Positions 1,801-51,478 of a stretch of DNA of 64,000 bases are shown in pieces. The translations under genes were made by a program, and so were the position numbers. This DNA is from an uncultured Candidatus Micrarchaeota archaeon (GTDB lineage: Archaea > Micrarchaeota > Micrarchaeia > Anstonellales > Bilamarchaeaceae). The notes beneath the pieces are model-generated. The model saw only the letters and a list, made by a program, of their open reading frames with translations. It was not told the DNA's origin and ran no database searches. The stretch spans positions 121,098-185,097 of the forward strand of contig CAVRPK010000002.1 in the NCBI GenBank assembly GCA_963723105.1, read 5' to 3'. Each line of letters starts with the position of its first letter. Position 1 is the first letter of the stretch.

Positions 1801-1924
1801 CGGGCCCGGGGGGATTTGAACCCCCGGCCTACGCCTTTCTCCTGTTTTTATTAGGAGAGCGCCGCTAAAGACTCGAAATAGTTTTATCTACTACTTCGAT
1901 CTATCCAAGCTGAGCTACGGGCCC
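1801..1924 (-). tRNA. intron-containing tRNA, 124 nt, candidate tRNA-Arg(CCU) with two introns: a 34-nt hairpin intron in the D-arm and a 15-nt intron at canonical position 37/38
   Basis: Reverse complement reads GGGCCCG-TA-GCTC-AGCTTGGATAGA|intron 1 (approx 1866-1899)|GC-G-GCGCT-CTCCTA|intron 2 ATAAAAACAGGAGAA (approx 1837-1851)|A-GGCGT-AGGCC-GGGGG-TTCAAAT-CCCCC-CGGGCCC-G. The acceptor stem is a perfect 7 bp, the T-arm is GGGGG/TTCAAAT/CCCCC, and the D-stem GAGC forms across the first splice junction. Intron 2 carries AGGAG complementary to the CTCCT anticodon region, which is bulge-helix-bulge-like. The spliced length is 75 nt with anticodon CCU. CCA is not encoded. Confidence 0.6.
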
Positions 1925-1986: not shown

Positions 1987-2751
1987 ATGATTCTAGAATT
2001 ATCTTCACTTCTATCCAGCGCAGTTGAAAAAACGCTTGAGGATAATGTTGCAATTTCATTTTCTGGTGGACTTGATTCGACTTTAATTGCTACTATAGCA
2101 AAAAAACATGCTAATGTGGACCTTTATGCAGCTGGTGCTCTGGGCAGTCCTGATCTTGAATATGCAGAAAAAACAGCAGAAGAACTCGGTCTTCCGCTTC
2201 ACAAAATCATAATCGATGAAAAACTTGCAATGGAAACATATGAAAAAACCTACAAGATACTTCCTCTTGATTTTCTAAAAGTTGAAATTTTAGTTCCTGT
2301 TTACCTAATTGCGAAGGCAGCAAAAGAAGCTGGGCATAGCGTTCTTCTCTTTGGCTCTGGAGCAGAGGAGCTTTTTGTTGGATATGAGAGATATTATGAT
2401 TACGCTGAAGAAGGAAAAGACCTAGATAAAATTCTCAAAGACGAATTCAAAACCCTCCCAAAGCGAGATATTGGATGGATAAAAAAGATCTGCCGAAAAC
2501 AAGGAATAGAAGCTCGCTGTCCTTTTTGCAATACTGATGTTGCAAATCTTTTATTCTCTGTTCCGCTTGAAGAGAGGATGGCAGAGCGGGAACTAAAAAA
2601 AGGAATTCTTAGAGAAGCTGGAAAAATTCTAGGCGTTCCAAAACTTGCTCTTCTTCGGAGAAAAAAAGCAATGCAATATGGCTCTGGAGTCCACAAAATC
2701 TTTATGAAAAAAGCAGATGAAATCAATGCTCATTTTCCAGCTGTCATCTGA
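1987..2751 (+). CDS. PP-loop (adenine nucleotide alpha-hydrolase superfamily) ATPase, AsnB-C-terminal/QueC-like
   Basis: 254 aa with the PP-loop motif ISFSGGLDSTLIA near the N-terminus and a CPFC pair near the C-terminus. The exact family cannot be resolved by eye. Its 3' end overlaps the convergent folD by about 22 nt. Confidence 0.5.
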   Translation: MILELSSLLSSAVEKTLEDNVAISFSGGLDSTLIATIAKKHANVDLYAAGALGSPDLEYAEKTAEELGLPLHKIIIDEKLAMETYEKTYKILPLDFLKVEILVPVYLIAKAAKEAGHSVLLFGSGAEELFVGYERYYDYAEEGKDLDKILKDEFKTLPKRDIGWIKKICRKQGIEARCPFCNTDVANLLFSVPLEERMAERELKKGILREAGKILGVPKLALLRRKKAMQYGSGVHKIFMKKADEINAHFPAVI

Positions 2752-3566
2752 GCTGCTATTACCACATTTGAAATAAGAACTGCTACTGTCATAGGTCCTG
2801 CTCCACCTGGAACTGGGCTGCAATTGGCCTTTTTTATTACTTCTTCAAATAGTACATCTCCTTTGATTTTGCCATCAACCCTTGTTGTACCAACATCAAT
2901 TACATAAGCCCCTTCTTTGATCATATCTCCAGTAATCAGTCCAGGTTTTCCAACAGCAGCAACTACAACGTCTGCATTTTTTGTATGAACTGAAAGGTCT
3001 TTTGTTCTGGAATGACAAACTGTTACTGTTGCATTTTTCTTCAGAAGCATGAGTGCAAGAGGCTTTCCAACAACATTGGATCTTCCAATTACAGTTACAT
3101 TTTTACCATTCAAGTCAACCTCATAATACTCAAGCATTTTCATAACTCCAAGAGGAGTTGCTGGCATAAGAGCTGGAAGTCCGACAAACATTCTTCCCAT
3201 GTTTGCAGATGTCCATCCATCCACATCTTTTTCTGGTTTAATCATTTCTACAATCTTTGTAAAATCAACTTGTTTTGGAAGTGGCGCTTGTACAATAAAT
3301 CCATCTACTTCTGGATCATCATTCAATTGTTCAACAATCTTCAGGACATTTTCTTCACTAGTATCCTCATCCATCTTCTTCAAAGTTGCTTTAACTCCTA
3401 TGGCTTCTGCTTTTTGCAGTTTTTTCTTTACATAAACTTCTGAAGCAGGATCATTTCCAACAAGGACTATTGCAAGATGCGGCTTTCTTTCCATTTGCTC
3501 TACTATGACTCTTGTTTCTTCGAGCATGCTATCCGCGACTTCTTTTCCTTTGAGAGTGCGATACAT
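2730..3566 (-). CDS. folD: bifunctional methylenetetrahydrofolate dehydrogenase / methenyl-THF cyclohydrolase
   Basis: 278 aa. Motifs PHLAIVLVGNDPASEVYVKKK, GKNVTVIGRSNVVGKPLALMLL and SPVPGGAGPMTVAVL are characteristic of FolD. Confidence 0.9.
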   Translation of the reverse strand: MYRTLKGKEVADSMLEETRVIVEQMERKPHLAIVLVGNDPASEVYVKKKLQKAEAIGVKATLKKMDEDTSEENVLKIVEQLNDDPEVDGFIVQAPLPKQVDFTKIVEMIKPEKDVDGWTSANMGRMFVGLPALMPATPLGVMKMLEYYEVDLNGKNVTVIGRSNVVGKPLALMLLKKNATVTVCHSRTKDLSVHTKNADVVVAAVGKPGLITGDMIKEGAYVIDVGTTRVDGKIKGDVLFEEVIKKANCSPVPGGAGPMTVAVLISNVVIAAQMTAGK

Positions 3567-3625
3567 ATATCCTCTTCTAACAGGTAAGGGTTTTAAAAAG
3601 ACTTTTTGGCTTAATCTGCCTTGAT

Positions 3626-3831
3626 GGGCCTGTAGCTCAGTCTGAAACTTTTAGGGAAAAACACTAGAGGTTTCCTGAAATGGTTAGAGCGCCGGTCTTA
3701 TATGACACGTTCTAGTACAATCCGATGTGGATTGGCTGACCTAGGAAAGCCGAAGGTCCCGAGTTCAAATGTACCTTTTAAGTGCTAATATCCAATGCGC
3801 TAAATTGATACTGGATGTCTCGGCAGGCCCA
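3626..3831 (+). tRNA. tRNA with three introns (206-nt gene, 75-nt predicted mature form), candidate tRNA-Ile(UAU); introns in the D-loop, at canonical 37/38, and between the T-loop and T-stem
   Basis: The ends pair perfectly: GGGCCTG (3626-3632) with CAGGCCC (3824-3830), discriminator A at 3831. Exon 1 GGGCCTGTAGCTCAGTCTG is followed by intron 1 at approx 3645-3681. Exon 2 is GGTTAGAGC-G-CCGGT-CTTATA, followed by intron 2 at approx 3703-3747. Exon 3 is A-GCCGA-AGGTC-CCGAG-TTCAAAT, followed by intron 3 at approx 3771-3818 and exon 4 CTCGG-CAGGCCC-A. The mature form GGGCCTGTAGCTCAGTCTGGTTAGAGCGCCGGTCTTATAAGCCGAAGGTCCCGAGTTCAAATCTCGGCAGGCCCA is a canonical class I cloverleaf. The anticodon-stem strands CCGGT/GCCGA pair at four of five positions, with 31-39 a U-G wobble and 27-43 a mismatch. 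The anticodon is UAU if intron 2 sits at the canonical site, and the intron boundaries are accurate to within 2 nt. Confidence 0.6.
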
Positions 3832-3875
3832 TCTTTTAAACACAAATATAAATCTATCCACACTAATTCTATTTT

Positions 3876-5395: not shown

Positions 5396-7585
5396 TTACA
5401 TCTTCTTCGTGATGAGGGTTCCAAAACCTCTTTTGATTTTGTAATATCCCACAATTAATCCTGGAAGAAGTATAACTGAATAGAAAAATGCAAATAAAAT
5501 ACCGAATGCTAGCGTTATCCCAAGGTCCTGGAGGAAACTAAGATTAGCAACTTGAAGTGCCAAAAATCCGAGAACTGTTGTGAGGGAGGTTAGGAACAAA
5601 AGCTTTGCAAGATGCACATGTGTTGCCTCAACTGCTCCAATATAAGATGCTCCACGTTCCAGTTCTCTTCTCATTTCAGAACCTGCATGGATCGAGAAAT
5701 CCATCCCAATTCCTATTATGATTCCGAAAATAGATGAGGTTATTTGCGAAAATGGTACATTTGCCCACCCGTCCATTCCCATTGTGGAGAGTATTGCAAG
5801 TCCAATTGGAAGCAGCATCATAATCCCAACAGTTATTGATCTGAAATACAAAATAAGTAAGACAAAAATCAATGCAAAAGATACTAGTGTGACCATCTGT
5901 GATCCTGAGCTATTCACTTCATTTTGCCTTGCATCATATGCCACTTGTCCAGAATAATATGTCTCAACTTTCTCAGGAAAAGCCTCTGTGATTTTTGGAA
6001 TGAACTTTTGGAAGAAAAGATCATTGTCCCATACTACTTGTCCTCCATATCCCACCGTGATCCTCATCATTTTGTAGTCGTTTCCAATATCAGGGTGATC
6101 TATTCTCGTATCAGTTTCTGGTATCTGTCCTCCATTTTCCCTTTTAATGTCATCCACTGGGGATCTGACAGATTCTATAAATTCAATGCTACGAAGCTTT
6201 TTTTCAAAATTATCCACCTCTTTGAGAACCTCATATGAGCGAACATCATCTGCTTCTACAATGATTATCATGGCGCTTGTTGTTCCTGGAAAAGCATCTC
6301 CCTGCTCAACCAGATCAATGATTATTGGGTTATCTGCAGGAATAAATCCTGAATAATCCATTTCAGTATTGACCATAGTGATTCCAAAGATGACAATGAA
6401 GGCAAATGCCAAAACCCCTCCAAGAAACGAGAATGTTCTCTTTCCAATAATATTTCCAAGATCCATCATTCTCTCATGCAGAAATCCAGAAATCTCTGAA
6501 AAATTATTCGTTGAACTTTTTGGTTTTCCAGATCCGAAAATAAGAAAGATAATTGGCGTGAGGCTCATATTGAAGAAAAATACGAATAGTATTCCAACAG
6601 AAGTTGCGATGGCAAGAGTTTCCATAACTCTTGATCCAGCGAAAAAGAGTGAAAAGAAACCAATCAAAGTTGTCATAAAAGCAAGGGATAGTGGAGGTCC
6701 GATTTTTTGAAGAGTTGAAGTTACAATATATCTTCTTCTTCCTTCTCCTTTTACAAATCCATTTTGAAGGTGCAGAGTATAGTCAACACCAATGCCTATT
6801 GTTAAAACAGCAATAAGTGCAGTTGCAATGTTCAGAGGAACTCCAAGCATTTTCATTGCACCAAAAATACATATCATAACGCACGAGAGGACAAAAATAT
6901 TGACTATTGTCATCACATTGCTCCCATAAAATATTCTAATGCAAATCGCAATAATAATCATACTAAGTAGTCCTGTTACAATAAGGTCACTGAACAACAA
7001 ACGGGATACTTCTGAAAAGATAACTGGGCTTCCTCCAACGCTTGTTTTTATCCCAGTTGGTTTTTTAGTCTGCTTAACTATCTCTTCTATCTGTGTTTTT
7101 CTGTCCTTTAGTTGGCTGTCGCCAGATCCCATATCCATATACACAAGAAGAAGAGCACTGGTTCCGCTTTCGCTAAATAAATATGAGCTTTCGAGTGGTG
7201 AAAAGACATAATCAACAAAGCTCTTTTCAGATATTTTTTTCTGAAGTGTCTCTACATACTCTATTATCTGCGGGTCATGAACAGATTCTATCCTATCAAA
7301 ATCAGCCGAGGTTCCATCAATGCGGATAAATACGGTCATTGCATCGGCCGAATTAAAATTGGCATCAACAAGATCGTTTTTTAGTTTGACTGGATCGTTT
7401 TCATAGAAAAATGAGTCCTGACCAGAATCTACTTCTATGTTGATTGCAAATGTCCCCATAAAAGCAATGAAAATAATTAGAAGGCCTAGAAGTGGCCATT
7501 TCTCATTATCAAGAAATTCAACATAGTTTGGGATCGATTTCTGATATCTATCTCCAACTCCTGAGATGATTCCCATTTTATTCAC
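5396..7585 (-). CDS. RND-superfamily exporter (MMPL/SSD-like, two 6-TM bundles with large extracytoplasmic loops)
   Basis: 729 aa. Two repeated hydrophobic bundles each follow a large hydrophilic loop, and the GxxxD-containing TM helices are MMPL-like. The start overlaps the upstream gene by 8 nt, indicating an operon. Confidence 0.65.
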   Translation of the reverse strand: MNKMGIISGVGDRYQKSIPNYVEFLDNEKWPLLGLLIIFIAFMGTFAINIEVDSGQDSFFYENDPVKLKNDLVDANFNSADAMTVFIRIDGTSADFDRIESVHDPQIIEYVETLQKKISEKSFVDYVFSPLESSYLFSESGTSALLLVYMDMGSGDSQLKDRKTQIEEIVKQTKKPTGIKTSVGGSPVIFSEVSRLLFSDLIVTGLLSMIIIAICIRIFYGSNVMTIVNIFVLSCVMICIFGAMKMLGVPLNIATALIAVLTIGIGVDYTLHLQNGFVKGEGRRRYIVTSTLQKIGPPLSLAFMTTLIGFFSLFFAGSRVMETLAIATSVGILFVFFFNMSLTPIIFLIFGSGKPKSSTNNFSEISGFLHERMMDLGNIIGKRTFSFLGGVLAFAFIVIFGITMVNTEMDYSGFIPADNPIIIDLVEQGDAFPGTTSAMIIIVEADDVRSYEVLKEVDNFEKKLRSIEFIESVRSPVDDIKRENGGQIPETDTRIDHPDIGNDYKMMRITVGYGGQVVWDNDLFFQKFIPKITEAFPEKVETYYSGQVAYDARQNEVNSSGSQMVTLVSFALIFVLLILYFRSITVGIMMLLPIGLAILSTMGMDGWANVPFSQITSSIFGIIIGIGMDFSIHAGSEMRRELERGASYIGAVEATHVHLAKLLFLTSLTTVLGFLALQVANLSFLQDLGITLAFGILFAFFYSVILLPGLIVGYYKIKRGFGTLITKKM

Positions 7586-18037: not shown

Positions 18038-18334
18038 ATGTCTGAATTCAAGGATTTTTTGAAAGAATATAAGGTAGCGGGTCTTGCTGTTGCATTCATT
18101 ATGGGTGTTGCTACAACAGCTCTTGTGAAGTCCCTTGTCGATAATATTATCATGCCATTCATTGCTGTAGCTCTTCCAGATGGATCATGGCAGGAAGCAA
18201 CTGCTCAAATAGGACCGGCAATAATTGGCTGGGGTCCATTCTTGGCTGAACTTATAAATTTCCTGATAATAGCATTAGTTGTCTTCATGATTGCTAAACT
18301 TGTGCTCAAGGAACAAAAAGTCACAAAGAAATAA
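18038..18334 (+). CDS. mscL: large-conductance mechanosensitive channel
   Basis: 98 aa. EFKDFLKEYKVAGLAVAFIMGVA...IIMPFIA and the second TM helix followed by a basic C-terminus match MscL topology and motifs. Confidence 0.75.
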   Translation: MSEFKDFLKEYKVAGLAVAFIMGVATTALVKSLVDNIIMPFIAVALPDGSWQEATAQIGPAIIGWGPFLAELINFLIIALVVFMIAKLVLKEQKVTKK

Positions 18335-18365
18335 CTTTTTCTTTTTTATCCTTTATTCTATAATC

Positions 18366-18884
18366 ATGGAAATTCATATTCTTCGTCTTGGTCACAGGCT
18401 TCCTCGTGATGAGAGGATCTCAACACATGTTGCACTTGTAGCTCGCGCTTTTGGAGCTGGGAAAATTACCTATTGCGGTCAGCATGATTCTGGCCTTGAG
18501 GATAGTATTTCCAGAATTTGCGAGAGGTGGGGCGGAGACTTTACAATTGAGTATTCTTCTAGCTATAAGAAAGTTATTTCTCAGTATAAAAAGCACGGTT
18601 ATTCTCTGGTTCATCTTACAATGTATGGTCTTCCGGTTCAGGATATCCTCTCAAAACTCAAGCTTGAAGAAAAGATTCTTCTGATTGTTGGTTCTGAAGC
18701 AGTTCCAGGAGATGTTTATGAGTCATCTAATTACAATGTCTCTGTCACTAACCAACCGCACAGTGAAGTAGCTGCACTTGCAATAACTCTTGATAGAATC
18801 TGCTCTGGAGCAGAACTTGAAGGCATTGATTTTGGCGGAAAGATTAAGATAAAACCCTCAGCAAAAGGGAAAGAATTTGTTTAG
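18366..18884 (+). CDS. tRNA (cytidine56-2'-O)-methyltransferase aTrm56 (SPOUT family)
   Basis: Starting from the internal ATG (MEIHILRLGHRLPRDERISTHVALVARAFGAG...HLTMYG...NQPHSEVAALAITLDR), the product aligns along its full length, from memory, with Pyrococcus aTrm56. The ORF-track start at 18291 is an upstream extension. Confidence 0.85.
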   Translation: MEIHILRLGHRLPRDERISTHVALVARAFGAGKITYCGQHDSGLEDSISRICERWGGDFTIEYSSSYKKVISQYKKHGYSLVHLTMYGLPVQDILSKLKLEEKILLIVGSEAVPGDVYESSNYNVSVTNQPHSEVAALAITLDRICSGAELEGIDFGGKIKIKPSAKGKEFV

Positions 18885-19443: not shown

Positions 19444-22400
19444 TTACCACATTACTCTAGCAGTACCCATGATTCCCCATCCCATAGGAGCATTCATAAT
19501 TCCAGTAACGCTTTCTTCTTGTCCTGCCCATGGACTGAGTTGTTCTGGGGATGTAACTGAACCTGGTGTTGTTGGCCAGCTTCCTGAGTATCCCATAATA
19601 TGGCCAGATATTATTGTTCCTGGGTCACTACTTCCTGGATCTTGCCTTTCATAGGTTACTCCAAGGCCTCCTCTTAGAACTGGATATGTTTCGTATTCTG
19701 CTGCTGGATGGAGAGATCCCTCTGGTTCTGGACTTGTGGATGCATCTTCAAGCATTCTCCTTCTCTCAGCTCCTCCTTCAAAGAAGAAGTGGAGACTAAG
19801 AGATTCACCAGTAGTGATGTTTGTTCTTGCCCATGTGAGTCCAACTCCTGCAGTGGTTCTTTGAAGTTCATTTAGGTCTGAACACTCCCCTCCGCTTAGC
19901 TGTGAACAAACCTGTGCCATTTCATCAGCGTTTTCAAAGACATCATCACTTGCAAATACTACTTGTCTCGTTGTCTGATTGAAGAATACATATGAGTATA
20001 GCTGTTCGTTTACTCTCTCAGTATTAAGCATTGTAATGCGATGACTTAATCCAACCTGCCAATTGGTCCATTGCTCGTTTCCATATGTTCTCTGGCCATA
20101 TAATACACCTGCAAGAAGATCTTGTCTGTGGTCTTGTAATAATTGTGCAAGTGCGCCTATTGTCCAATTGCCACCTGGGCTATATTGTTCATGACCTGCT
20201 TCGGTAAGAGGTATTGTTAGTCCTCCCATGAGCCTAAATGCTGTCAGTGTTCGAAGTCTTCGATCTCCTGAGAATGTAAATTCGTAATCCTCGCCTTCTG
20301 TTGAAATGTCAAGTCTGCTAACTCCATGTCCAATGTAGTTGCCAGATTCTTCCCATTCATCAAGGTCTTCCTGAGTTCCAATCATGATAGAACCTCTTGA
20401 ATTTGGACCTGTTCCAATTCGGGTTACCATGACGAAATATCTATTTCTTCTCTCTGGACTATCCCCTTCCATTTCTGCATTGAGATGGCTTCCATAGATA
20501 ACATCATATCGTTCTGCCTGCTGTCTTCCATGCGAGTTCAATGCTGCTGCAAGGCAAGGTCTTATGTTCTGTTCAATTATTCTTCGAACTTCAGCTCCAG
20601 TTAATTCTGCTCTTGCTGGTGGCTGCCTGATATTGACTTCAGATAAACTTGCTTCAACGCTTCCGCTTGTTCCTGCTCTTCGTACAAACTCAGTTTCTAC
20701 TTCTTCAGGAGTTTTCAATACCCATCCAAGAGAATGAACATTGTTTTCAATGAGCTGTACTAGTTCTTCTCCATATTCAGTAGCAATGCGTTCTCGGTTT
20801 GGATTAACTCTTCTAAGTTCTCTATATATGTCTACAATTGCTTCTGCAGTTTCACTGCTTCTTCTTGAAGAAATTAACATTGCAAGTGGATCTTCATCCT
20901 CATCAATCATTCTTGCAAGCTCAGTTCTCACTTGTGCAACAGGTCGAATCATCCACTCAAGACCATTTCCTCTCTGTGCATGAACAATATCTGCAAATCC
21001 TTGGCCATAAATTCTTTCCATTCTGTCATGGCTGTATGCAACACTTCCAAGCCTGATGTATGCATCGCGTGCAGCTGCCGAATGATCTGAGGTTCTATGA
21101 AGCGTAACATTGCGCTCATACCTTGACAGTTCAATTGCAGGCCAATCAAGAACTCCAAAGCCCATATATGCATCAATATACGGATTTGCCCTCTCACTTC
21201 TTTGTACTTGGAACCCTCCTGTTGAATCAGGGTCTTCTACAATCATTACTGATGAATGGGTGTATCCATGACCAAGGAGGTCTATGTATGCACGAGCCGG
21301 TCTTCCAAATATAAACATTCCATAAAGATTTGCATATGCTGTTTCATCATCTGTCCATTGTCCTGTTGCAATTGTGTAAATTCTTAATCGCTCTCCATCA
21401 TATCCATAACCAAGTGCAAATCTCCAAATATCACTTGTAAAGTCATTTTGAAGGGAACTTGATAATCCTTGTAGAATCTGTTCTTCGTTTGTTGGATTTT
21501 GCTGAATGTCTAACATTGCCTGGTCTATCCGGTCATACAATCTACTAAATCCAGGAACTCTTTGCACTCCAGCAAGAATTCCATGCCTCCTGGCCCAGTA
21601 TGCCATAAGTAAACTTGCATAATGTTCGTTTGGTGCTTCTGGCTGATCCTCTGCTTCTCCTTGCCAGCCCTCCATTCTTCCATACATGTATGTTCCAGCT
21701 ACTAACCATCCAGTGTCACGAGCCTCGTCTTCTCCCCAACCATACATATTGACAAGAACATTTCTCATTGTTGCAAAAACTTCATCTGATTCCTGATCCA
21801 CTGCTCTGAATTCGCGCAGCAAATCTACTTCAGTATATCCACCAGTAAGTCCATGCCCATATGATCTGTGCGCGCCTGTCTGCCTTTCATATCTCCATCT
21901 GGCACCAGCTGTTAGTGGATATCCACCAACTGCACGGAATTCCATTGATGCTTGTCTTGGAGCAATTGCCATTCTTCTCCACATGAATTCTCCAGAACCT
22001 TCTGCCCAATGTGATCCATCTATACTTGTAGAATCCTCAGGATTCATTTCAAGAATCTGTGCTCCTCTGTAAAATCCTGCATAAATATCCCGAGCTCGTC
22101 CATCTTCAAGAATGTGGGTTACTGCTTGTCCCATGGCCTCCTCAGCATGTTGCGGAGTCATAGTTCCCATATCTCGAACAACTTGTCCAAGTGCAAGAGT
22201 AGTTGAAGTATCCCCTCTAGTAGTTGGAATTGTAAAGCCTACTGCAGCACCATCAAATCCAGCAAGAGCAGATTCTCCGTTAATCTCATTCCAAACTCCC
22301 TGCTCGCGCGCAAGCCTTTCAATTTCATCTGCGCCGGTTTGAGCTTGCTGCTCTGCATTTAGTCCAAGATGTCTTTCTATTAATCTAGTTCTCTCTGCAC

Positions 22401-25400
22401 CTGAAAGTGCTGGTGCAACTGCACTATTTCTTCCTGCAAATCTAAGGCCTGCCAGAATATTTCTGGTATCTGTACTTCCATATAAATAATTGAGTATCTG
22501 TGCGTGCGTATCAATTCCATATGCAAGATCATATGCATTTCCAGTTGATCCATCAATGTAGAAAAGTCTTGTTCTAAGCTGGCTTCTCTCATCCTGCAAT
22601 ACTGCTCCAACTGTGCCAGGAGCAGCTCCTTCTGGAACTGGCGCGCGAAGCTCTGGTGCATGTTCTCCGCCGACTACAACAAGCATATCTCCTCCAGAGT
22701 CTCTTGCAATTCTGGAATATGTTTCAAGAAGTCCACTGTATCTTTCTCTACTTTGCACCTCTCCAGTTTCTTCAGTTGTTTGGTCCGCACCTTCATAATT
22801 GAATCGTATATTCCCTCTTTGCAATCCTACTCCTTCTCCAAATGCAACTGGAATAACTCCAGCAACCCCCACTGGAAGTCCTGCTGCCTGAGCTTCAATA
22901 TCAACATCAGTTTCAGCTGTTTCACTATCTCCAGCCTCTTCTGATTCTACTGCTGTTCTTCTATGAGTTACAACCCCCCGGCCTCGAACTCCCCCAGTAA
23001 TTGCCCTTCCTTGCCCAACTCCTCCAACTGCTGCTACATCTGTTGAAGTTGTATCTGAGTCTGTTGCAGTTGGGATAGTTCCCTCATGACCGTAATAGCC
23101 ACCAACTTCCCAATCATGGCGAAGCCAATAGCTACTATAGTCTATTGGCATCTCACCAAATAATCTTGTTATCTCTCTGATAATTGTGGAAGCTCCAAGG
23201 GCTCCGATTCTATATCTTTGCGGAATTCCGTGTATCATATGTCTTCCAAGTGTTGGGTGCAGCATGTCATACATTCTTGAGAAATATTCAGTTGCACCAG
23301 AATCAAGTCCAAATCTGCTTGGAGGCTCAATCAAACTTCTTGGCATTGTTGGAGATGGGATTAAATTCCAAGGTTGTGCTGCTTGTCCATAAAGTTGTGG
23401 AAGTGGTTCCATTCCTTCCATTTGCAGGAAGTGGGGTCTGTACCTATATCCTTGAGGATTCCATGGACTTTCCATAAGTTGCCTTTCAGGAACTCTTCTA
23501 AGTTCATCCTCCATTCTATTGTGATCATATGTTGCAGTAACTTCTGGAAGTCTCTGTCCAATTCTGGCAAACACTTCAAGGAAGTATTCCCTGTTCCTAT
23601 GTGTGCTGTAAGAAAGAGTAGCTCCTGCTGTTGAGTACATCCTGCTGAATACTGTATTGAACGTTTCAATTCCGGCAACAAGTGTTCTTTCATCCTGTGC
23701 AACACTGATTATTGCTGGAAGAACCTGCAGGATGAATGGACCAACTAAGTATGGGTCTCTTTGACTAATCAATAACAGCGAATTCATTGTTGCCCGCGCG
23801 GCACTTGTTCCGAATTCTGAGCCCAGGCTTCCAATTCTGCCAAGTCCAACTCCAAGGTAAAGCGCATCAATAATCGAGAGTTGGTTTCTAAGGTTTGTTG
23901 CTTCTGCTTCAGTAAATCCTCGTGCATCTTCTGCATCAGAAGCTATTCCACTATCCCGTCTTCCCTGGAGGTATGTGCTCTCAAGCTGGCCATAGAATGT
24001 TCTTCCTGCAGTAATCAAATCTCTTCCTGATTCACTGCTAAGGAAACGTGCAAGGTCTTCTGGAGTTTGAAGTCCGCTTTCTGCAGTTCCTGGCGGAAGA
24101 CTGATACTGTATCTTCTTGCAAGTGTTTGCAGTTGTGAATTTAGAAGGTCCAGATTAATGAAATTTCTAAATAGATAATCATTTGATCCAAACTGGTCTC
24201 TGTAATGGTTAATTGCAAGAGTTAAGTTCGCACCAAGATCATCAGTTGCATTTGCAAAAACAAGAACTCCTTGAAGTCTTGAATAAACTCCTGGAAGAAC
24301 TTCAGCAACATGCCTGAAGTTTTGCATAAATTCTCCACGTGCAACCCCATCTCCTGCTTCAAAGCTTCTGTTTAATTGTTCTAATCGCTCTGCATCAACT
24401 TGTCTTAGGTGCTCAACATCACTAGTACTTAGGTTTTCAAGGAATCTAAGCTGTGCTCGGTTTCTCTCAACCATTTGCACAAATGCTGCTCCATATATTT
24501 GTCTAAGTCCTGCAATTCTTGCAGTTCTCTCTTCTGATGCCGGAGTGTTCAATGCTCCATAAACAGAACCAAGTGCATATAGCAGTTGTTCATCCTGATG
24601 TCTGTATGCTCTGTGAAGAGCAGTAACCACTCTGGTATATGCTTGTGGATATGCGCGGTATAATGATTGTCTTACTGATGCTGGAAGTGCAGTTACTTCT
24701 TCAAGTCCTGCTCTTGCCTCTGCAAGCGGAGCTAAATGCTCTCTTTGTCTTTCCACTGCACTGACAAATCTATCACCATAAAGCTCTACCATCCTCTCTC
24801 TTGTCTCAGTTCCATCAGGACGAGCTATTGCACGATAAACTCTGATCGTTATATTCGCAAACAATACGTTTTGGCCCATTCTCAAATTTTGTTCGCTAGT
24901 GCCAGTTAAATTTTCAAGGAATCCAAGAACTGGTCTGTGATCATTTATCAATCTGACAAATTCAGTTCCATGTCTTCTTTGCACATCCGCTACATTCCCG
25001 CTTCCTCTTGAAATCGCATTGTATGCCGTTCCAAGGTCTCTGCTAAATCCACGGTCTCCCATGCTGGAAATAAATGCTCTAAGCTCTGGATCAGCTCTGC
25101 CAAGTACAGCAAAAATAATATCTCCGATTACTGCTTGCTTGTCTGGATTTGTAACTCCACTGTACCAGGTCATTCCACTTCGAAGCGATCCAACATCGCT
25201 TGAGCTTGCAATTGTTTCTGAAAATCCATCAATACTGCCTGCAGTTCTTGAAAGGTCTCCTCCAGTTTCTGCAAGGTGAATCATTGAAAATGCAAGTTCA
25301 ACTGATCTTCTAAGTTCAGTTCCACTAATCATGCTTTCTTGCAGTGCTCTTTGTTCTGTTAGGAGGGTTTGTATTTCTGCTTGATCAGCACCACCTGCTG

Positions 25401-28065
25401 CAAGCCTTATCCTTCTACTTTCTTCTTCCCACCTATTGATTCTTTCTTCAAGCATTGGACGTGCAGGTGCAAGAATGCTGTGTTCCAGTTGTCTTCTCAT
25501 GCTTTCTAGATCACGTTCAATTGTACTGGAATTTGCTGTGATCTCTCCCCTACTTCCTTCAAGAGCTTCTCCTGATATTCCTCTTGTTCTTGATGCTTCT
25601 CTGCTTGCAACTGGAGTTAAGAAAAATCTTCCAAGCGAATCAATTCCATCCATTCTAGCAAGTCCGCCTCTAGTTAAAGCCTCTCTTCCACTGGCATATG
25701 AAAGAATGAATTGTACTGGAGTAAATGGAAATAGTAATTCTTTTGCTGATCTGGTTATTTGGTCTTGCCCCCGCAAAAGTCGTTGTTCAATACTTGTAAC
25801 ATTTCCGCCTAGCCACTCTAATTGCGCTCTGTTTTGAGTAACAAAATCCACTGCAGCCTGTCCATACTGAGTAACTAATTCTGCTGTAGTTGGACTTGCC
25901 TGTCCATGAGCTGCATAAATTGCATGAAGTGCTCTTGCAAGACCTCCAATTGAATATCCAATTGCTGGTGCTCCTCCTTGAGTAGCCAGTGTATCAGCTT
26001 CACGAACAAACACATCAGATGTTCTTGTTGTCATCTCATGTTCTATTTGTCCTACTGGTCTAACTGCCCAGTGCAATGTATCAAGATTTTGTGAAACATA
26101 ATTCACAAATTCACTACCATATCTTGTAGCAAGCAATTCTCTTGTTTGTCTGAATAATGTAATTTGTGCGTATGCTGCAGATAATGTAGTTCCACCGTCT
26201 TGTGGGAAAAGCGCCTTTAGCTGAACTGCAACCTCATCTGATTCTTCTCCCCTTCCAGGTGCTGATCTTCGATCAAGTTCTGCCTGTACTTCTTCTGGAG
26301 TTCCTGCAAGCCAGGATAGTTCAGCATAATGTTCAGTGATAATTGAGCCTGCTGGAACAGCGCCTATTCCAAGTCGCTCTGTTGCAAGCTGTCCATAAAC
26401 ATCTGCAAGCGCAGCACCTCTGTCAAGTCTTTCTCCGGCTTGCACTCTAATTGTCATTGAAGAAATGCGTCTTGCATGTATGTCTTCTTCGCGTGCTCTA
26501 TCTGTTAATACTCTGTTTAGATCAGTGGCAGTTCTTATCATCCAGGTTGGTCTTCTTGCTGAAACAAGCGCTATTAATTCCGGACTATATGCTGCTCTGA
26601 GTCTGTCCATATCTGGAGGGCTTCTGAGAAGTTCTATGTAAATATCTCTAACTGCGATTGATCTTACGTTTCTTCTGAAATTCATTTCAATACTTGAGAT
26701 TGTAGTATTACCCTGAATTTGCGCTCTATACAATCTTACAAACTCATTGAAGAAAGTATCATTTCTCTCAAGTGGTACTCTGGTGTATGTTCTTGATCCA
26801 ATATCTCCGGTACCCGCAACAAAATTGCCACTATAAATTCTGATAAATTCATCTCTGGCAGTTGTACTTCCAGTTGCAAGCACCTGCTCCATCAAAGTTG
26901 CGCATCTTCTAGCTAGTCCAAGCGAAATAATATCAACAAATCTGTCAACTGTTTCATTTCCATGTGCCTGTCTAAGCGATTGAAGTCTTGAGACATTGCC
27001 TGTGCTTGCAGCTTCATACATTTGCGAAACTGCAGTTGCAAATGCTTCTGGATCTACCTGGTTATTATGGTGAGTATAATATGATCTGTAAACCATGGAA
27101 ATTGGTGATGGCTGTCTATGGCCTTCCTCTCCAACTTGGTCTCTTGTTATGCGCTCCAAAAATAATCTTTGGAATCCTGTCCAGAATTCTCCGGATGTAC
27201 TGTGCGCTCCAAATATTCTTCTAAATTCATCTCTTTGTGCAGTGTCTCCAGTGAGCATAAAGTTTCGAAGAGAATCAACACATCTTGTTGCTTGCTGGTT
27301 TGGTAATTCTCCAGATAAAAGATTAGTTAAATTTTCTCCATGTCGCTCTCTTATCTCAGTAAGCCCTGTTGCTTCGAGTACATGTCTTGCAGCATCTTCT
27401 GCAGTAGCATCTGTATGAGCTCTTCTATATGCTCTGAATCTTCCAATTTCACTTTCTGCTGGAGCCTCTGTTTCTCCTGCTCTCTCTACTCTTTGAACCA
27501 GTGCATCTATCAGTGCCCATGTAGTTGCATTGGCAGCAAGCCTGGTTCTAATCTCACGAACTTTGGTAATAAAATCTTCCATGATAGAAGGTTCCATTCG
27601 AATTCCGATAACGTGATCAAGATCAGCTTCATATGCTTCAAGAATTGGACGAACTTGATCATCTGCTCTCATTGTTGTCATTCTGCTATGAAGCTCATCC
27701 ATAAATTCTCTGTTTTCAGTTACCGGCTGCTCCTGGAATTGACTTGTGATAAGAGCTCTGTATCTTGTATAATCAGCTTCATTTCCTGTTAAAATATAAT
27801 TTTGATATGCGGTTGCAGCATCCCTAGCTCTTTGCTGAAGGCCTGCTACTTCTTCCTGTTCCGCGTGGGTAGCTCCCCTACGTCGAGTTGCCGGTTGTGC
27901 CATAACAGAATTTACTCCGAGATGATTTATATTATTACCGCCTAAGAAAACTGAGACTGCAACTAAAGGCGCAAGCAAATATTTTCCAAAAATAGAACTT
28001 TTTCTGCGGTGCGGTCGCTCTCCATGATCCCCCTTTTGATCATGTTTTATTTTGGATCCAACCAT
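19444..28065 (-). CDS. giant (2873 aa) Lys/Cys-depleted, Arg/Ala/Gly-rich repeat protein with N-terminal signal/anchor; ORFan
   Basis: Uninterrupted 8.6-kb ORF with an ATG start, preceded by GGAGAA 6 nt upstream. The N-terminus has a hydrophobic segment (IFGKYLLAPLVAVSVFLGG...VMAQPATRRR). At least seven diverged tandem modules share the motif YG..FV..V..N...L.WL....P..Q. An Asp/Thr/Gly-rich low-complexity linker lies near residue 1550. There are only a handful of lysines in 2873 residues. Confidence 0.7.
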   Translation of the reverse strand: MVGSKIKHDQKGDHGERPHRRKSSIFGKYLLAPLVAVSVFLGGNNINHLGVNSVMAQPATRRRGATHAEQEEVAGLQQRARDAATAYQNYILTGNEADYTRYRALITSQFQEQPVTENREFMDELHSRMTTMRADDQVRPILEAYEADLDHVIGIRMEPSIMEDFITKVREIRTRLAANATTWALIDALVQRVERAGETEAPAESEIGRFRAYRRAHTDATAEDAARHVLEATGLTEIRERHGENLTNLLSGELPNQQATRCVDSLRNFMLTGDTAQRDEFRRIFGAHSTSGEFWTGFQRLFLERITRDQVGEEGHRQPSPISMVYRSYYTHHNNQVDPEAFATAVSQMYEAASTGNVSRLQSLRQAHGNETVDRFVDIISLGLARRCATLMEQVLATGSTTARDEFIRIYSGNFVAGTGDIGSRTYTRVPLERNDTFFNEFVRLYRAQIQGNTTISSIEMNFRRNVRSIAVRDIYIELLRSPPDMDRLRAAYSPELIALVSARRPTWMIRTATDLNRVLTDRAREEDIHARRISSMTIRVQAGERLDRGAALADVYGQLATERLGIGAVPAGSIITEHYAELSWLAGTPEEVQAELDRRSAPGRGEESDEVAVQLKALFPQDGGTTLSAAYAQITLFRQTRELLATRYGSEFVNYVSQNLDTLHWAVRPVGQIEHEMTTRTSDVFVREADTLATQGGAPAIGYSIGGLARALHAIYAAHGQASPTTAELVTQYGQAAVDFVTQNRAQLEWLGGNVTSIEQRLLRGQDQITRSAKELLFPFTPVQFILSYASGREALTRGGLARMDGIDSLGRFFLTPVASREASRTRGISGEALEGSRGEITANSSTIERDLESMRRQLEHSILAPARPMLEERINRWEEESRRIRLAAGGADQAEIQTLLTEQRALQESMISGTELRRSVELAFSMIHLAETGGDLSRTAGSIDGFSETIASSSDVGSLRSGMTWYSGVTNPDKQAVIGDIIFAVLGRADPELRAFISSMGDRGFSRDLGTAYNAISRGSGNVADVQRRHGTEFVRLINDHRPVLGFLENLTGTSEQNLRMGQNVLFANITIRVYRAIARPDGTETRERMVELYGDRFVSAVERQREHLAPLAEARAGLEEVTALPASVRQSLYRAYPQAYTRVVTALHRAYRHQDEQLLYALGSVYGALNTPASEERTARIAGLRQIYGAAFVQMVERNRAQLRFLENLSTSDVEHLRQVDAERLEQLNRSFEAGDGVARGEFMQNFRHVAEVLPGVYSRLQGVLVFANATDDLGANLTLAINHYRDQFGSNDYLFRNFINLDLLNSQLQTLARRYSISLPPGTAESGLQTPEDLARFLSSESGRDLITAGRTFYGQLESTYLQGRRDSGIASDAEDARGFTEAEATNLRNQLSIIDALYLGVGLGRIGSLGSEFGTSAARATMNSLLLISQRDPYLVGPFILQVLPAIISVAQDERTLVAGIETFNTVFSRMYSTAGATLSYSTHRNREYFLEVFARIGQRLPEVTATYDHNRMEDELRRVPERQLMESPWNPQGYRYRPHFLQMEGMEPLPQLYGQAAQPWNLIPSPTMPRSLIEPPSRFGLDSGATEYFSRMYDMLHPTLGRHMIHGIPQRYRIGALGASTIIREITRLFGEMPIDYSSYWLRHDWEVGGYYGHEGTIPTATDSDTTSTDVAAVGGVGQGRAITGGVRGRGVVTHRRTAVESEEAGDSETAETDVDIEAQAAGLPVGVAGVIPVAFGEGVGLQRGNIRFNYEGADQTTEETGEVQSRERYSGLLETYSRIARDSGGDMLVVVGGEHAPELRAPVPEGAAPGTVGAVLQDERSQLRTRLFYIDGSTGNAYDLAYGIDTHAQILNYLYGSTDTRNILAGLRFAGRNSAVAPALSGAERTRLIERHLGLNAEQQAQTGADEIERLAREQGVWNEINGESALAGFDGAAVGFTIPTTRGDTSTTLALGQVVRDMGTMTPQHAEEAMGQAVTHILEDGRARDIYAGFYRGAQILEMNPEDSTSIDGSHWAEGSGEFMWRRMAIAPRQASMEFRAVGGYPLTAGARWRYERQTGAHRSYGHGLTGGYTEVDLLREFRAVDQESDEVFATMRNVLVNMYGWGEDEARDTGWLVAGTYMYGRMEGWQGEAEDQPEAPNEHYASLLMAYWARRHGILAGVQRVPGFSRLYDRIDQAMLDIQQNPTNEEQILQGLSSSLQNDFTSDIWRFALGYGYDGERLRIYTIATGQWTDDETAYANLYGMFIFGRPARAYIDLLGHGYTHSSVMIVEDPDSTGGFQVQRSERANPYIDAYMGFGVLDWPAIELSRYERNVTLHRTSDHSAAARDAYIRLGSVAYSHDRMERIYGQGFADIVHAQRGNGLEWMIRPVAQVRTELARMIDEDEDPLAMLISSRRSSETAEAIVDIYRELRRVNPNRERIATEYGEELVQLIENNVHSLGWVLKTPEEVETEFVRRAGTSGSVEASLSEVNIRQPPARAELTGAEVRRIIEQNIRPCLAAALNSHGRQQAERYDVIYGSHLNAEMEGDSPERRNRYFVMVTRIGTGPNSRGSIMIGTQEDLDEWEESGNYIGHGVSRLDISTEGEDYEFTFSGDRRLRTLTAFRLMGGLTIPLTEAGHEQYSPGGNWTIGALAQLLQDHRQDLLAGVLYGQRTYGNEQWTNWQVGLSHRITMLNTERVNEQLYSYVFFNQTTRQVVFASDDVFENADEMAQVCSQLSGGECSDLNELQRTTAGVGLTWARTNITTGESLSLHFFFEGGAERRRMLEDASTSPEPEGSLHPAAEYETYPVLRGGLGVTYERQDPGSSDPGTIISGHIMGYSGSWPTTPGSVTSPEQLSPWAGQEESVTGIMNAPMGWGIMGTARVMW

Positions 28066-28303: not shown

Positions 28304-30724
28304 TTAAAGTCCTCTTAGTACTCTTCGCTGTTGTCTTCTTTCTGGTTGTGCTGGTGCAGTTTGAGCTGGTGCTTGCTGCTCTTCAAGAGTTATTCCCTCA
28401 ATTCCGCGTGCCCAATGTCCTGCTGGCCTTGTTCTATTTCTTTGTCTCCATGAATACACTGCAAGAGCTGTAAGTGCTTGCGCGCTTTCACGTCCATCTG
28501 CTGTTAGTGTATCTGTTGTTCCTGAAAACACTTGTCTATTTAGTATTCTCAAATCTTCTGCAAGTCTTTGATTTGTTTCTCCAGTAAGTCCTGCAACATG
28601 ATTGACAAATGCTACCATTGCTTCAATCATTAGTCTTCGATCTCCAGCAGGTGTAGTTTCGCTGAGCCTGACAGCTGGCCTTGTTACTGGTTGATACCTT
28701 GTTTGTCCTGCTGCCCAAGTGTGAAATGCTCGTCCTACAGGAGTACTTGCATCATGGAAAAGTTCATTGAAGGCTCTATCAAATGCTCTTGAGAGATCAT
28801 CTCTGTTTAGATGCCTCAGTGCTCTTTCAAAGACTGGTGTAGTAGAACTTCCATGAACAGTTGAGGCAACATCAGTAGGAAGCCTTAAGATAGATACAAT
28901 TCCTTCTGGCCTTCCTGTTTGTACTGCCCTAAACAATTCGACCTGGAGGTTTTGCCAATGCCTGTGTGCATGTTCTTCAAGCGGAGTTCGTTGTGGCTGT
29001 GCTGGCTGGGCGGTTCTTGCTACTGCTCTTTGCCAGACTGCCTGCTGAATCAATCTTCCAATTTCATTTCTTCCTCTTAAATTTGGATGAAGGTGATCTC
29101 CACGAGGGCTATCATATTCTGGTCTTAGCGTTGCCGGGGTTCCGGTTCCAAGTGATGAGGACAAGTCAACAAATATAATATCTGTTCTCTGGCGAAGCCA
29201 TGCATCAATTGCATCTGCTCTTCTTTGAGCAGCTACACTCCATCTGGGGTATGTCGCATAAGGCGGGCTTCCCCAAACAACTGGTAACACTCCTGCACTA
29301 TGCGCTCTTGCAATCATTGTCTCTAAATTACCTTGAACTGTTTCAAGTGATCTTCCGTCATTTACAATTACTGCTCCTGATATTACTACTATGTTCGGCT
29401 GTCCACGTCCTCCGATTCTATGGCCATTATATCTTCTTAGAACTCCTGACATTGCCTCTCCTGAAACACCATCAGATTCAACGCGTGCACTTGGAACATC
29501 TCTTCTAAGAAGTCTTTGCAGTTCCCTTCCAACTGCTCCTCCCGCAGTAAGTGAAGCTCCAACAATCAGTACATTTGGATTTGCAAGAGCAGCTGCGTAT
29601 CTGCTCATATCAAGACCAGTTTGAGCCTCTGCAACTCTTGTTGGTGCTGCTGGTTGCGCTTCCGGAATCTCAAGAACTTCAGGAGCTTGCCAGGTTGCAA
29701 TTCTACTTTGTGCTCTTCCGCGTCCGCGTGCTGGATGCTCCTGATACCATCTTCTCATATATAGTGATGAGCTTGTGATCGTATCTGCATCCATTGGACT
29801 GCTAAGGTATGCTCTTTGGAAAACCAATCTCACTTCCTCTCTATCTGCATCTTGCTCTGGAGTTCGAACCAAATCAACATGTGCAAGTCTTCCATGTTCT
29901 GTATCTTGATTAGTTAGAAGCTGGCTTATCTCTTGTCTAAATCTCGTGTTTCCACCATTTGGACGCGCTTCAAAATGCATCAAATAATATCTAATATAGA
30001 AATTAGCAGCTCTAATTACCGGATCACTTGCATCTGCTGCAAGAGTTCCACTACTTGCAGTAATTGCACTTTGAAGCCTTGTGAAATCCGCATTAGTTCC
30101 AGCTTGTGATGAGAGATATAATCTGAATCTTGGAATCTGCAATAATTCATTGAAAACAGAAACTGTTGTTGCTCTTTGATTAGGTGTTCCGGCGGCGCTT
30201 CCTGCTCTTTCTCCTGTAGTTAGGAACTGCTCAATATATCTGGAGTTTGTATGAAGCGCGCTTGCAGCACCTGTAGCTGCTCTGTCCGAGCCTCTGGAAT
30301 TTCTAAGCTGCGTTTCTATCCATTGTGCGGAAATTGTAGGCCTTGGAGCTTCTCGTGGCGGCGGAGTAGGTGGTCTTGCTGCCGGAGTTCTCTCCCGTGG
30401 AGGTCTGCTTCTTGGCGGCCTTGATCTTGGCGGCGGAGTAGTTCTTCTTTCTGTTCCGCCTCCTCCTGTTTCTTCTCTTGCGCCTGGATGCAATTGCCTG
30501 AAGATGCCACTTGCAATACTTCTAGCAGAACCAATCCGTTCAAATGCAGCTGCATCAGCATCAGGAGCTCCTCCTATACCTACATTAATTGCTCTTCTGA
30601 CTTTTCCAGTCAATTGTGGAATTGTGTCCTCTATACTAAAAGTAATTCCAGTAACTCTTCTCCATCCACTTGGCCCAACTACGACCAATGTATTTCCCTG
30701 AAGTTCTACTCTTGCACCTGCCAT
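28304..30724 (-). CDS. 806-aa protein with central SGNH/GDSL-hydrolase-like domain (approx 29047-29578) and N-proximal Pro/Arg-rich linker (approx 30337-30439); Lys-depleted
   Basis: The SGNH hydrolase blocks are recognisable: block I VLIVGASLTAGG (GDS(L)-type nucleophile Ser), block III VIVNDG (GxND), block V DHLHP (DxxH catalytic dyad). The linker reads PPPRSRPPRSRPPRERTPAARPPTPPPREAPRP. Its start ATG overlaps the stop of the 2360-aa gene in a TAATG arrangement. Confidence 0.6.
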   Translation of the reverse strand: MAGARVELQGNTLVVVGPSGWRRVTGITFSIEDTIPQLTGKVRRAINVGIGGAPDADAAAFERIGSARSIASGIFRQLHPGAREETGGGGTERRTTPPPRSRPPRSRPPRERTPAARPPTPPPREAPRPTISAQWIETQLRNSRGSDRAATGAASALHTNSRYIEQFLTTGERAGSAAGTPNQRATTVSVFNELLQIPRFRLYLSSQAGTNADFTRLQSAITASSGTLAADASDPVIRAANFYIRYYLMHFEARPNGGNTRFRQEISQLLTNQDTEHGRLAHVDLVRTPEQDADREEVRLVFQRAYLSSPMDADTITSSSLYMRRWYQEHPARGRGRAQSRIATWQAPEVLEIPEAQPAAPTRVAEAQTGLDMSRYAAALANPNVLIVGASLTAGGAVGRELQRLLRRDVPSARVESDGVSGEAMSGVLRRYNGHRIGGRGQPNIVVISGAVIVNDGRSLETVQGNLETMIARAHSAGVLPVVWGSPPYATYPRWSVAAQRRADAIDAWLRQRTDIIFVDLSSSLGTGTPATLRPEYDSPRGDHLHPNLRGRNEIGRLIQQAVWQRAVARTAQPAQPQRTPLEEHAHRHWQNLQVELFRAVQTGRPEGIVSILRLPTDVASTVHGSSTTPVFERALRHLNRDDLSRAFDRAFNELFHDASTPVGRAFHTWAAGQTRYQPVTRPAVRLSETTPAGDRRLMIEAMVAFVNHVAGLTGETNQRLAEDLRILNRQVFSGTTDTLTADGRESAQALTALAVYSWRQRNRTRPAGHWARGIEGITLEEQQAPAQTAPAQPERRQQRRVLRGL

Positions 30725-47606: not shown

Positions 47607-48014
47607 TCAGACGCACTCTTTGGCAATACTATCCATGAATGCTCTTCCTTTTGCACTGAGCACTCTTCCTTGTTTTTCTTTTACAAGGAGTCCTGCCTTT
47701 TCTAGCTGTTGCATTGCCTTTCTAATTGTAGATCCGCCTGCATCAACGTGTTTTTCGGGTCGTACTCCCCTTCTCTTTCTTCCACCATAATGCTTTCGGA
47801 GCTTTTGAACTCCAACAGAATTGTGGACATATATTTGTCTGAGAACGGATGCGCATCGAACATACCAGAAATTATCATCCTCTGGTGGTCTTTCTGCATG
47901 AGCCCCACTCTTAACAATGCCAACGAATGTTGGCTTCTCTATCTTCATCTCTTTCAATTTCAAAGCTGCATTTTCAATGAGCTTATTTGCTTCTACGTCA
48001 AATACTGTGACCAT
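47607..48014 (-). CDS. ribosomal protein S19e
   Basis: 135 aa. KPTFVGIVKSGAHAERPPEDDNFWYVRCASVLRQIY... matches S19e. Confidence 0.9.
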   Translation of the reverse strand: MVTVFDVEANKLIENAALKLKEMKIEKPTFVGIVKSGAHAERPPEDDNFWYVRCASVLRQIYVHNSVGVQKLRKHYGGRKRRGVRPEKHVDAGGSTIRKAMQQLEKAGLLVKEKQGRVLSAKGRAFMDSIAKECV

Positions 48015-48156
48015 GTATACACCTTACCTTGTTGAAACCCATGGTTTTAAATGTAAAATTTGGATGCAACGGTATCACTTTGGTATATACAATACTATTA
48101 AAAGCTATCTTTCGGGCCATCTGGGGTTTAAAACTCTTCTTTTGAAAGAAACTTGT

Positions 48157-51403: not shown

Positions 51404-51478
51404 GCTGCGTTCGTCTAGTCCGGTCAAGGATTGTGGACTTTCACTCCATCGACCTGGGTTCGAATCCCAGACGCAGCA
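51404..51478 (+). tRNA. tRNA-Glu(UUC), intron-less, begins immediately after the tmk stop codon
   Basis: GCTGCGT-TC-GTCT-AGTCCGGTCA-AGGAT-GTGGA-CTTTCAC-TCCAT-CGAC-CTGGG-TTCGAAT-CCCAG-ACGCAGC-A. The acceptor stem is 7 bp, the anticodon stem GTGGA/TCCAT encloses loop CTTTCAC, and the T-arm is canonical. Confidence 0.85.

Follow-up and report, generated by a model that had tools for sequence, protein, structure and literature searches.

A tRNA-Ile(UAU) gene with three bulge-helix-bulge introns in Candidatus Micrarchaeota

In ARMAN-2, a member of the Micrarchaeota, disruption affects 56% of the tRNA genes, whose introns occupy numerous sites, 59/60 among them, and the three-unit ε2 tRNA splicing endonuclease (EndA) of this organism cleaves both strict and relaxed bulge-helix-bulge (BHB) motifs, including those of pre-tRNA-Ile(UAU) and of a 59/60 intron (Fujishima et al. 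2011, PMC3239211). The same study reports that tRNA-Ile(UAU) is present, and TiaS and tRNA-Ile(CAU) are absent, in ARMAN-2, -4 and -5 (PMC3239211). Among 167 archaeal genomes surveyed, just two, those of Nanoarchaeum equitans and Korarchaeum cryptofilum, contained tRNA-Ile(UAU) (PMC6000648). ARMAN-1 and -2 are also listed among the lineages with multi-intron tRNA genes, for which the recorded maximum is three introns, in Thermoproteales (PMC4033280); the three-intron genes of that order are credited there to Sugahara et al. 2008. Outside the archaea, three introns interrupt the tRNA-Ile(UAU) gene of the red alga C. merolae, in its D-stem, in its T-loop and, between these, at 37/38. Their removal follows a fixed order, the 37/38 intron being the last to leave (PMC3728597, PMC9602550).

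Here we analyse a gene at positions 3626–3831 (plus strand) of a 64-kb stretch of DNA (hereinafter the window, meaning the whole stretch that was analysed, 64,000 nt in length and 39.9% GC). The neighbouring gene (2730–3566, minus strand) encodes FolD, and its closest genomic relatives, at 93%, 92% and 58–60% identity, are all labelled Candidatus Micrarchaeota. Further archaeal genes within the window are those for fibrillarin, aTrm56, eIF6, L31e, prefoldin, CDC48, an archaeal-type SRP RNA and RPA. The contig comes from Candidatus Micrarchaeota (DPANN), the phylum of ARMAN-2, which agrees with the original prediction in placing multi-intron tRNA genes in a few archaeal lineages (PMC3239211, PMC4033280).

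The gene comprises four exons (17, 22, 22 and 14 nt) separated by three introns (38, 45 and 48 nt; Table 1), and very probably is a functional Micrarchaeota tRNA-Ile(UAU) gene that carries BHB introns at 17/17a, 37/38 and 59/60 and whose product would most likely replace the TiaS system. That a 206-nt gene with three introns lies here had been proposed before, and is borne out by in silico splicing, by a BHB motif at every junction and by orthologues with and without the introns; the proposed identity of its mature product, tRNA-Ile(UAU), holds as well, both in the ARAGORN call on the joined exons and in the invariance of the TAT anticodon among orthologues.

Table 1. Coordinates and make-up of the tRNA-Ile(UAU) locus in the window, and of folD-linked orthologues (numbered within their own loci)
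Feature	Position	Strand	Description
TATA-box-like element TTTAAAAA	3592..3599	+	–34 to –27 relative to the mature 5′ end; candidate promoter of archaeal type
Exon 1 GGGCCTGTAGCTCAGTC	3626..3642	+	acceptor 5′ strand, nt 8–9, D-stem 5′ strand, D-loop through C17
Intron 1, 38 nt	3643..3680	+	D-loop 17/17a, relaxed HBh′ BHB
Exon 2 TGGTTAGAGCGCCGGTCTTATA	3681..3702	+	D-loop remainder, D-stem 3′ strand, G26, anticodon-stem 5′ strand, C32 U33, anticodon TAT (3699–3701), A37
Intron 2, 45 nt	3703..3747	+	canonical 37/38, relaxed hBH-like BHB
Exon 3 AGCCGAAGGTCCCGAGTTCAAA	3748..3769	+	A38, anticodon-stem 3′ strand, variable loop AGGTC, T-stem 5′ strand CCGAG, T-loop TTCAAA to A59
Intron 3, 48 nt	3770..3817	+	T-loop 59/60, strict hBHBh′ BHB
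Exon 4 TCTCGGCAGGCCCA	3818..3831	+	U60, T-stem 3′ strand CTCGG, acceptor 3′ strand CAGGCCC, discriminator A73
T-rich trailer TCTTTTA	3832..3838	+	likely transcription stop / 3′-processing region
L002 orthologue	2737-2941		same three introns as the window
L004 orthologue	2807-2942		37/38 intron and a 21-nt intron at 45/46 (textbook BHB); no D-loop or T-loop intron
L005 orthologue	2440-2552		37/38 intron only
L067 orthologue	about 7095-7297		exact exons of the window gene, introns at the same three positions (46, 45 and 37 nt)

Removal of 3643–3680, 3703–3747 and 3770–3817 (the last equivalently 3771–3818) in silico leaves 75 nt, which ARAGORN calls as tRNA-Ile(tat) and folds with an acceptor stem of 7 bp, a D stem of 4 bp, a T stem of 5 bp, the T-loop TTCAAAT and an A as discriminator. 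The cloverleaf had been described as perfect, but one pair, the uppermost of the anticodon stem, is mismatched (C27·A43). The mismatched nucleotides (window positions 3692 and 3753) are common to the window gene and the L002 and L067 orthologues, that is, to three independent assemblies. Since the 27/43 pair is A:U, C:G, G·U or U:A in other orthologues, the mismatch looks like an intermediate of compensatory change.

ARAGORN and BHB scoring, part of the check suggested along with the original prediction, give a consistent picture: the unspliced gene is missed by ARAGORN in genomic sequence, the spliced product is called, and the scoring supports all three junctions. The only tRNA that ARAGORN finds in the window is tRNA-Glu at 51404–51478. 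Rfam returns no match at 3626–3831, not even to part of a tRNA, either at the gathering threshold or at permissive E-values up to 5. In a permissive Rfam search of the whole window, the only trace of hidden tRNA genes is an 18-nt ‘tmRNA’ match on the T-arm of a tRNA-Arg gene (see below).

AUA accounts for 352 of the 18,550 codons in the window (19 per 1000) and for 27% of the Ile codons, a heavy usage that requires a decoder. By analogy with the ARMAN genomes, tRNA-Ile(UAU) most likely takes the place of the agmatidine (TiaS)/tRNA-Ile2(CAU) system. No tRNA-Ile2(CAU) was found within the 64-kb window, and no TiaS, EndA or RtcB among its 46 ORFs in Pfam and NCBIfam scans, the window being a small part of the genome; the single OB-fold protein (60075–61028) is RPA-like. 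As the analysis covers 64 kb of the genome, one may suppose that the gene is real but that the canonical TiaS and tRNA-Ile2(CAU) are kept as well, which would make the UAU tRNA redundant and no marker of TiaS loss. This is unlikely in light of the co-occurrence of tRNA-Ile(UAU) with the loss of both TiaS and tRNA-Ile(CAU) in ARMAN-2, -4 and -5 (PMC3239211) and of the restriction of tRNA-Ile(UAU) to N. equitans and K. cryptofilum among the 167 archaeal genomes (PMC6000648). The UAU anticodon is, moreover, kept in every Micrarchaeota orthologue that we found, which again speaks for replacement of the TiaS system over redundancy.

The BHB motif consists of two 3-nt bulges around a 4-bp helix, and the splicing endonuclease cuts after the second nucleotide of each bulge. 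We scored every junction pair in the 206 nt for this motif (n = 14,794). Only 42 pairs (0.28%) combine a fully paired central helix (H = 4/4) with at least 3 bp of flanking helix, and the three junctions dictated by the cloverleaf all fall within these 42, at ranks 1, 3 and 8, a coincidence that exceeds chance. All three form a 3-4-3 motif with a 4/4 central helix, and the flanking helices h′/h measure 11/1, 1/4 and 3/5 bp for introns 1, 2 and 3, respectively.

At intron 1, H is formed by TCAG (3637–3640) and CTGA (3675–3678), flanked by the bulges TC|T (3641–3643) and AA|T (3679–3681; vertical bars mark the cuts). Its helix h′ extends over 11 bp (GAAAC.../...GTTTC), and the combination H = 4, h′ = 11 and h = 1 is the top score among the 14,794 pairs; the motif is of the relaxed HBh′ type because the exon-side helix is almost absent. 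At intron 2, CTTA (3697–3700) pairs with TAGG (3742–3745), the bulges are TA|T (3701–3703) and AA|A (3746–3748), and the anticodon stem (4 bp plus C27·A43) serves as helix h; this motif is relaxed and hBH-like because h′ is just 1 bp. In the minimum-energy structure predicted by RNAfold for the whole precursor, BHB 1 is formed with its helices, but BHB 2 and the central helix of BHB 3 are not.

At intron 3, TTCA (3764–3767) pairs with TGGA (3812–3815), one of the four pairs being G·U, between the bulges AA|T (3768–3770) and TG|T (3816–3818). Helix h is the 5-bp T stem and helix h′ is GTA/TAC, which comprises 3 bp here and 5 bp in L002 and L067, and the score (4,3,5) ranks third among the 14,794 pairs. 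The ends of this intron are ambiguous, in that a T repeated at both ends permits excision at 59/60 or 60/61 with an identical spliced product. The original prediction was right about the D-loop, the canonical anticodon-loop site and the T-arm, and had put the third intron at 60/61, on the border between T-loop and T-stem. The repeated T is compatible with that placement, but 60/61 yields no BHB, and only at 59/60 do both cuts fall after the second nucleotide of a 3-nt bulge around the 4-bp helix, with the T stem as helix h. The recurrent site among orthologues is likewise 59/60, and an intron at 59/60 of ARMAN-2 pre-tRNA-Cys is cleaved in vitro (PMC3239211). Excision at 60/61 is thus very unlikely, and intron 3 lies inside the T-loop, as only 59/60 gives a BHB.

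In other Micrarchaeota genomes tRNA-Ile(UAU) is also syntenic with folD, lying upstream of it, and the folD-linked orthologues (Table 1) constitute a natural series of intron gain and loss. L004 and L005, which lack introns 1 and 3, are exactly collinear across the proposed junctions of the window gene: exon 1 is continuous with exon 2, and the T-loop junction is uninterrupted (TTCAAATCTCGG / TTCGAATCTCCG). The exons of L002 and L067, exon 1 included, are identical to those of the window at all 75 positions, and their introns differ from those of the window in 4 and 31 columns, respectively, every substitution and indel falling in an intron interior. Both orthologues retain the ends of the introns that form the BHBs, with pairing maintained through changes in h′; in intron 1 of L067, for instance, the interior differs and the ends are conserved. 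Upstream, 11 out of 12 loci with an orthologue have an equivalent of the TATA-like box (TTTAAA/TTTATAAA) between –35 and –23, consistent with a putative promoter role for the element at 3592–3599, and T-runs follow the gene in most orthologues.

A survey of metagenomes with an exon-2 pattern (AGAGCGNCGGTCTTATA) retrieved 120 loci, 98 of which hold a full-length tRNA-Ile(tat) after spliced alignment and ARAGORN validation. The TAT anticodon is invariant in L002, L004, L005 and these 98 homologues, the selection pattern itself containing TAT. Uninterrupted metagenomic tRNA-Ile(UAU) genes match the spliced product of the window gene at 62–68 of 75 positions. The Rfam tRNA model RF00005 scores genes with zero to two introns, namely L005, L004, L019 and uninterrupted metagenomic homologues, at 50–71 bits, and the three-intron genes go unrecognised by it. 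Intron positions were counted in 75 intron-containing genes with good spliced alignments, using BHB-compliant introns only; the spliced-alignment script also yields spurious acceptor-stem ‘introns’ where the stem differs from the query, and these, lacking a BHB, were excluded. The counts comprise 63 introns at 37/38 and 14 at 59/60, which is the commonest non-canonical site, together with rarer ones at 53/54, 58/59, 17/17a, 19/20, 20a/21, 22/23 and 45/46. The combination of a D-loop, a 37/38 and a 59/60 intron recurs in L092, L089, L021 and L033.

Some metagenomic orthologues carry long T-loop introns (58/59 or 59/60), measuring 150 nt in L018, 141 nt in L128 and 76–83 nt in L045, L092 and L134. 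Units resembling GGTTTCC recur in these introns alongside long hairpins, and a common 5′ sequence (TCGGTTTCCGGTTTCC) is found in several of them.

That the locus is a decaying pseudogene disrupted by insertions, with a cloverleaf that is an artefact of three freely chosen removals, is scarcely credible: the standard detectors are blank here, a stem carries the C27·A43 mismatch and the functional reading draws on sequence, but the exons are 100% conserved in three assemblies whose intron interiors have diverged, every junction has a BHB motif, the junctions are validated by intron-lacking orthologues, the promoter box is conserved, and no second tRNA-Ile(UAU) was found within a window that uses AUA heavily.

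For the functional gene that we favour, we envisage that a precursor of roughly 210 nt would be transcribed from the TATA box about 30 nt upstream, and that its exon-intron junctions would each fold into a bulge-helix-bulge. The tRNA splicing endonuclease would cut after nucleotide 2 of every 3-nt bulge, an RtcB-type ligase would join the four exons, and the ends would be trimmed before addition of CCA, which is not encoded 3′ of A73. The mature 75-nt tRNA would then read AUA, probably with a modified U34. Against such function stand the incomplete BHB folding in the RNAfold structure, the weak h′ of intron 2 (1 bp) and the near-absent h of intron 1, with which splicing needs an endonuclease of broad specificity, none being encoded by the 46 ORFs of the window. 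An enzyme of this kind is predicted because two of the three motifs are relaxed and two introns occupy non-canonical positions, and the obvious candidate would be the three-unit ε2 type known from ARMAN-2. The host cell must possess splicing machinery, since a tRNA-Arg(CCU) gene in the window is also split by BHB introns.

This tRNA-Arg(CCU) gene (1801–1924, minus strand) has two introns and is missed by both ARAGORN and Rfam. One, of 34 nt, lies in the D-stem at 22/23 (1867–1900; H = GGAT/GTCT, h′ 6 bp), and the other, of 15 nt and hBH-type, at 37/38 (1837–1851); the spliced 75-nt product is called as tRNA-Arg(cct). L002, a close relative, precisely lacks the D-stem intron, and in L067 this intron has diverged, a C:G pair of h′ having become U:A by compensatory change. 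Standard tools thus fail to see two of the window's three tRNA genes. A search for mobile or repeated introns, in which all five introns were compared by blastn-short with the window and a subset of the loci, namely those with L0xx handles, returned orthologous copies only.

Elsewhere in the window, an SRP RNA (54307–54567, minus strand) is divergent, passing the Bacteria_large_SRP model with 66.8 (gathering threshold 60) and scoring 64.3 against an Archaea_SRP threshold of 96.5 despite its archaeal host. Two giant ORFs (19444–28065, 2873 aa, and 30724–37806, 2360 aa, both on the minus strand) match nothing in Pfam at E-values up to 1e-4; a protein of 806 aa with a GDSL-lipase domain is encoded between them, and a match-less 411-aa ORF follows them. 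Fibrillarin (47917–48807, plus strand) has an N-terminal extension of about 80 residues (domain 82–295 of 296 aa), and in aTrm56, a tRNA Cm56 methyltransferase (18291–18884, plus strand), the domain spans residues 80–196 of 197.

The first 17 nt of the 37/38 intron hold a position-fixed conserved module, UGRC followed by 1–3 N, YGYUYURR, N and ACA, which in intron 2 of the window reads TGACACGTTCTAGTACA (3703–3719). The core of the module is complementary to G19–G26, the D-arm's 3′ half (GTTAGAGCG at 3683–3691), with nine contiguous pairs in the window. The module is also seen in L004, L005, L018, L044, L045, L050, L109, L110, L125, L134 and others. A helix of 8 bp or more over A21–G24 is present in 50% of the 60 distinct introns that measure at least 22 nt, compared with about 10% of shuffled introns and with at most 15% for any other exon region. 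When the introns are clustered at 70% identity, the helix occurs in 10 of 29 clusters, where 0.8 would be expected and the highest count among 200 shuffles is 5; clustering at 60% identity or below collapses the introns into one cluster and is uninformative. Where a locus carries C in place of T at position 20a, a G stands opposite, and the helix is present in the RNAfold minimum-energy structure of the window precursor. A pair-count covariation test is weak (56% of cells paired; nine double changes against 3.7 expected, nine being reached in 5 of 500 shuffles), since construction of the set leaves the exon side almost without variation and sequences differ by 1 nt in the register of the helix, and the Y/R pattern of the module could come from transitions alone. 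The stronger evidence for the intron/D-arm helix is the enrichment test.

Pairing of the module would put it in competition with the D-stem and the 37/38 BHB. We raise, as a tentative and rather doubtful idea, that the canonical intron of archaeal tRNA-Ile(UAU) might be a functionally constrained module, acting either as a folding switch that orders splicing or in presenting the anticodon for modification of U34/U36. A folding switch would have the 37/38 intron removed last, as in C. merolae; a role in modification would entail an intron-dependent change at U34/U36, as in yeast tRNA-Ile(UAU), in which anticodon modification by Pus1 depends on the intron. A literature search yielded no description of an intron/D-arm module. 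The introns were also inspected by eye for a C/D-box guide RNA, for which the Haloferax tRNA-Trp intron provides a precedent; CUGA occurs near the 3′ end of intron 2 but no RUGAUGA C box accompanies it, and in orthologues the CUGA region gives way to an ordinary Watson-Crick h′ helix; the guide-RNA reading is rejected.

In annotation, ARAGORN and Rfam together found one of the three tRNA genes in the window, and since standard annotation misses such genes, ‘gaps’ in the codon tables of metagenome-assembled DPANN genomes are suspect. A single tRNA that occurs with one, two or three introns at varied positions also offers material for the study of intron-turnover evolution.

Compared with Thermoproteales, as these are portrayed in PMC4033280, the locus shares the presence of up to three BHB introns per tRNA gene and a rapid gain and loss of introns. 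Thermoproteales are however Crenarchaeota, with a heterotetrameric (αβ)2 endonuclease and thermophilic, GC-rich genomes, and similar intron copies are described for them across tRNA species, whereas none was found in the window or in the searched loci. N. equitans and K. cryptofilum likewise have an archaeal tRNA-Ile with the UAU anticodon, near-absent from other archaeal genomes, and in K. cryptofilum its gene also bears an intron (PMC6000648); both belong to other phyla, and the K. cryptofilum gene is reported with one intron rather than three (PMC6000648).

The C. merolae gene encodes the same tRNA species with the same layout of introns, which lie in the D-arm, in the T-loop and at 37/38 and each have a BHB motif; its expression and stepwise splicing have been demonstrated. 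C. merolae is nevertheless a eukaryote, and its non-canonical sites are the D-stem and 53/54 in place of 17/17a and 59/60. The resemblance between the two is convergent, not homologous.

The closest system is that of ARMAN-2 (Candidatus Micrarchaeum acidiphilum), which belongs to the same phylum and has a tRNA-Ile with a UAU anticodon and a 37/38 intron, non-canonical introns including some at 59/60, and both strict and relaxed BHB motifs, as does the window organism; TiaS-independent decoding of AUA has been proposed for ARMAN-2 and is proposed here. The two differ in that the tRNA-Ile(UAU) of ARMAN-2 is described with a single canonical intron of 25 nt, whereas the window gene has three (38, 45 and 48 nt), and in that ARMAN-2 comes from acid mine drainage, whereas the window organism has a genome of ~40% GC as judged from the window and the genome record that is its nearest match carries the label ‘Modern_marine’. 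Descriptions of the phenomenon, of the enzyme and of the decoding strategy date from 2011. The trait proposed as a phylogenetic and physiological marker is therefore real but less new than implied, having been published for this lineage in that year, and the novelty is limited to three introns here in place of the one described in ARMAN-2 tRNA-Ile(UAU). Because such genes are already documented in ARMAN/Micrarchaeota, the window gene is a good example and not a new phenomenon; it leaves current understanding unchanged, and extends the ARMAN-2 picture of disrupted tRNAs and AUA decoding through a UAU anticodon to a relative with ~40% GC.
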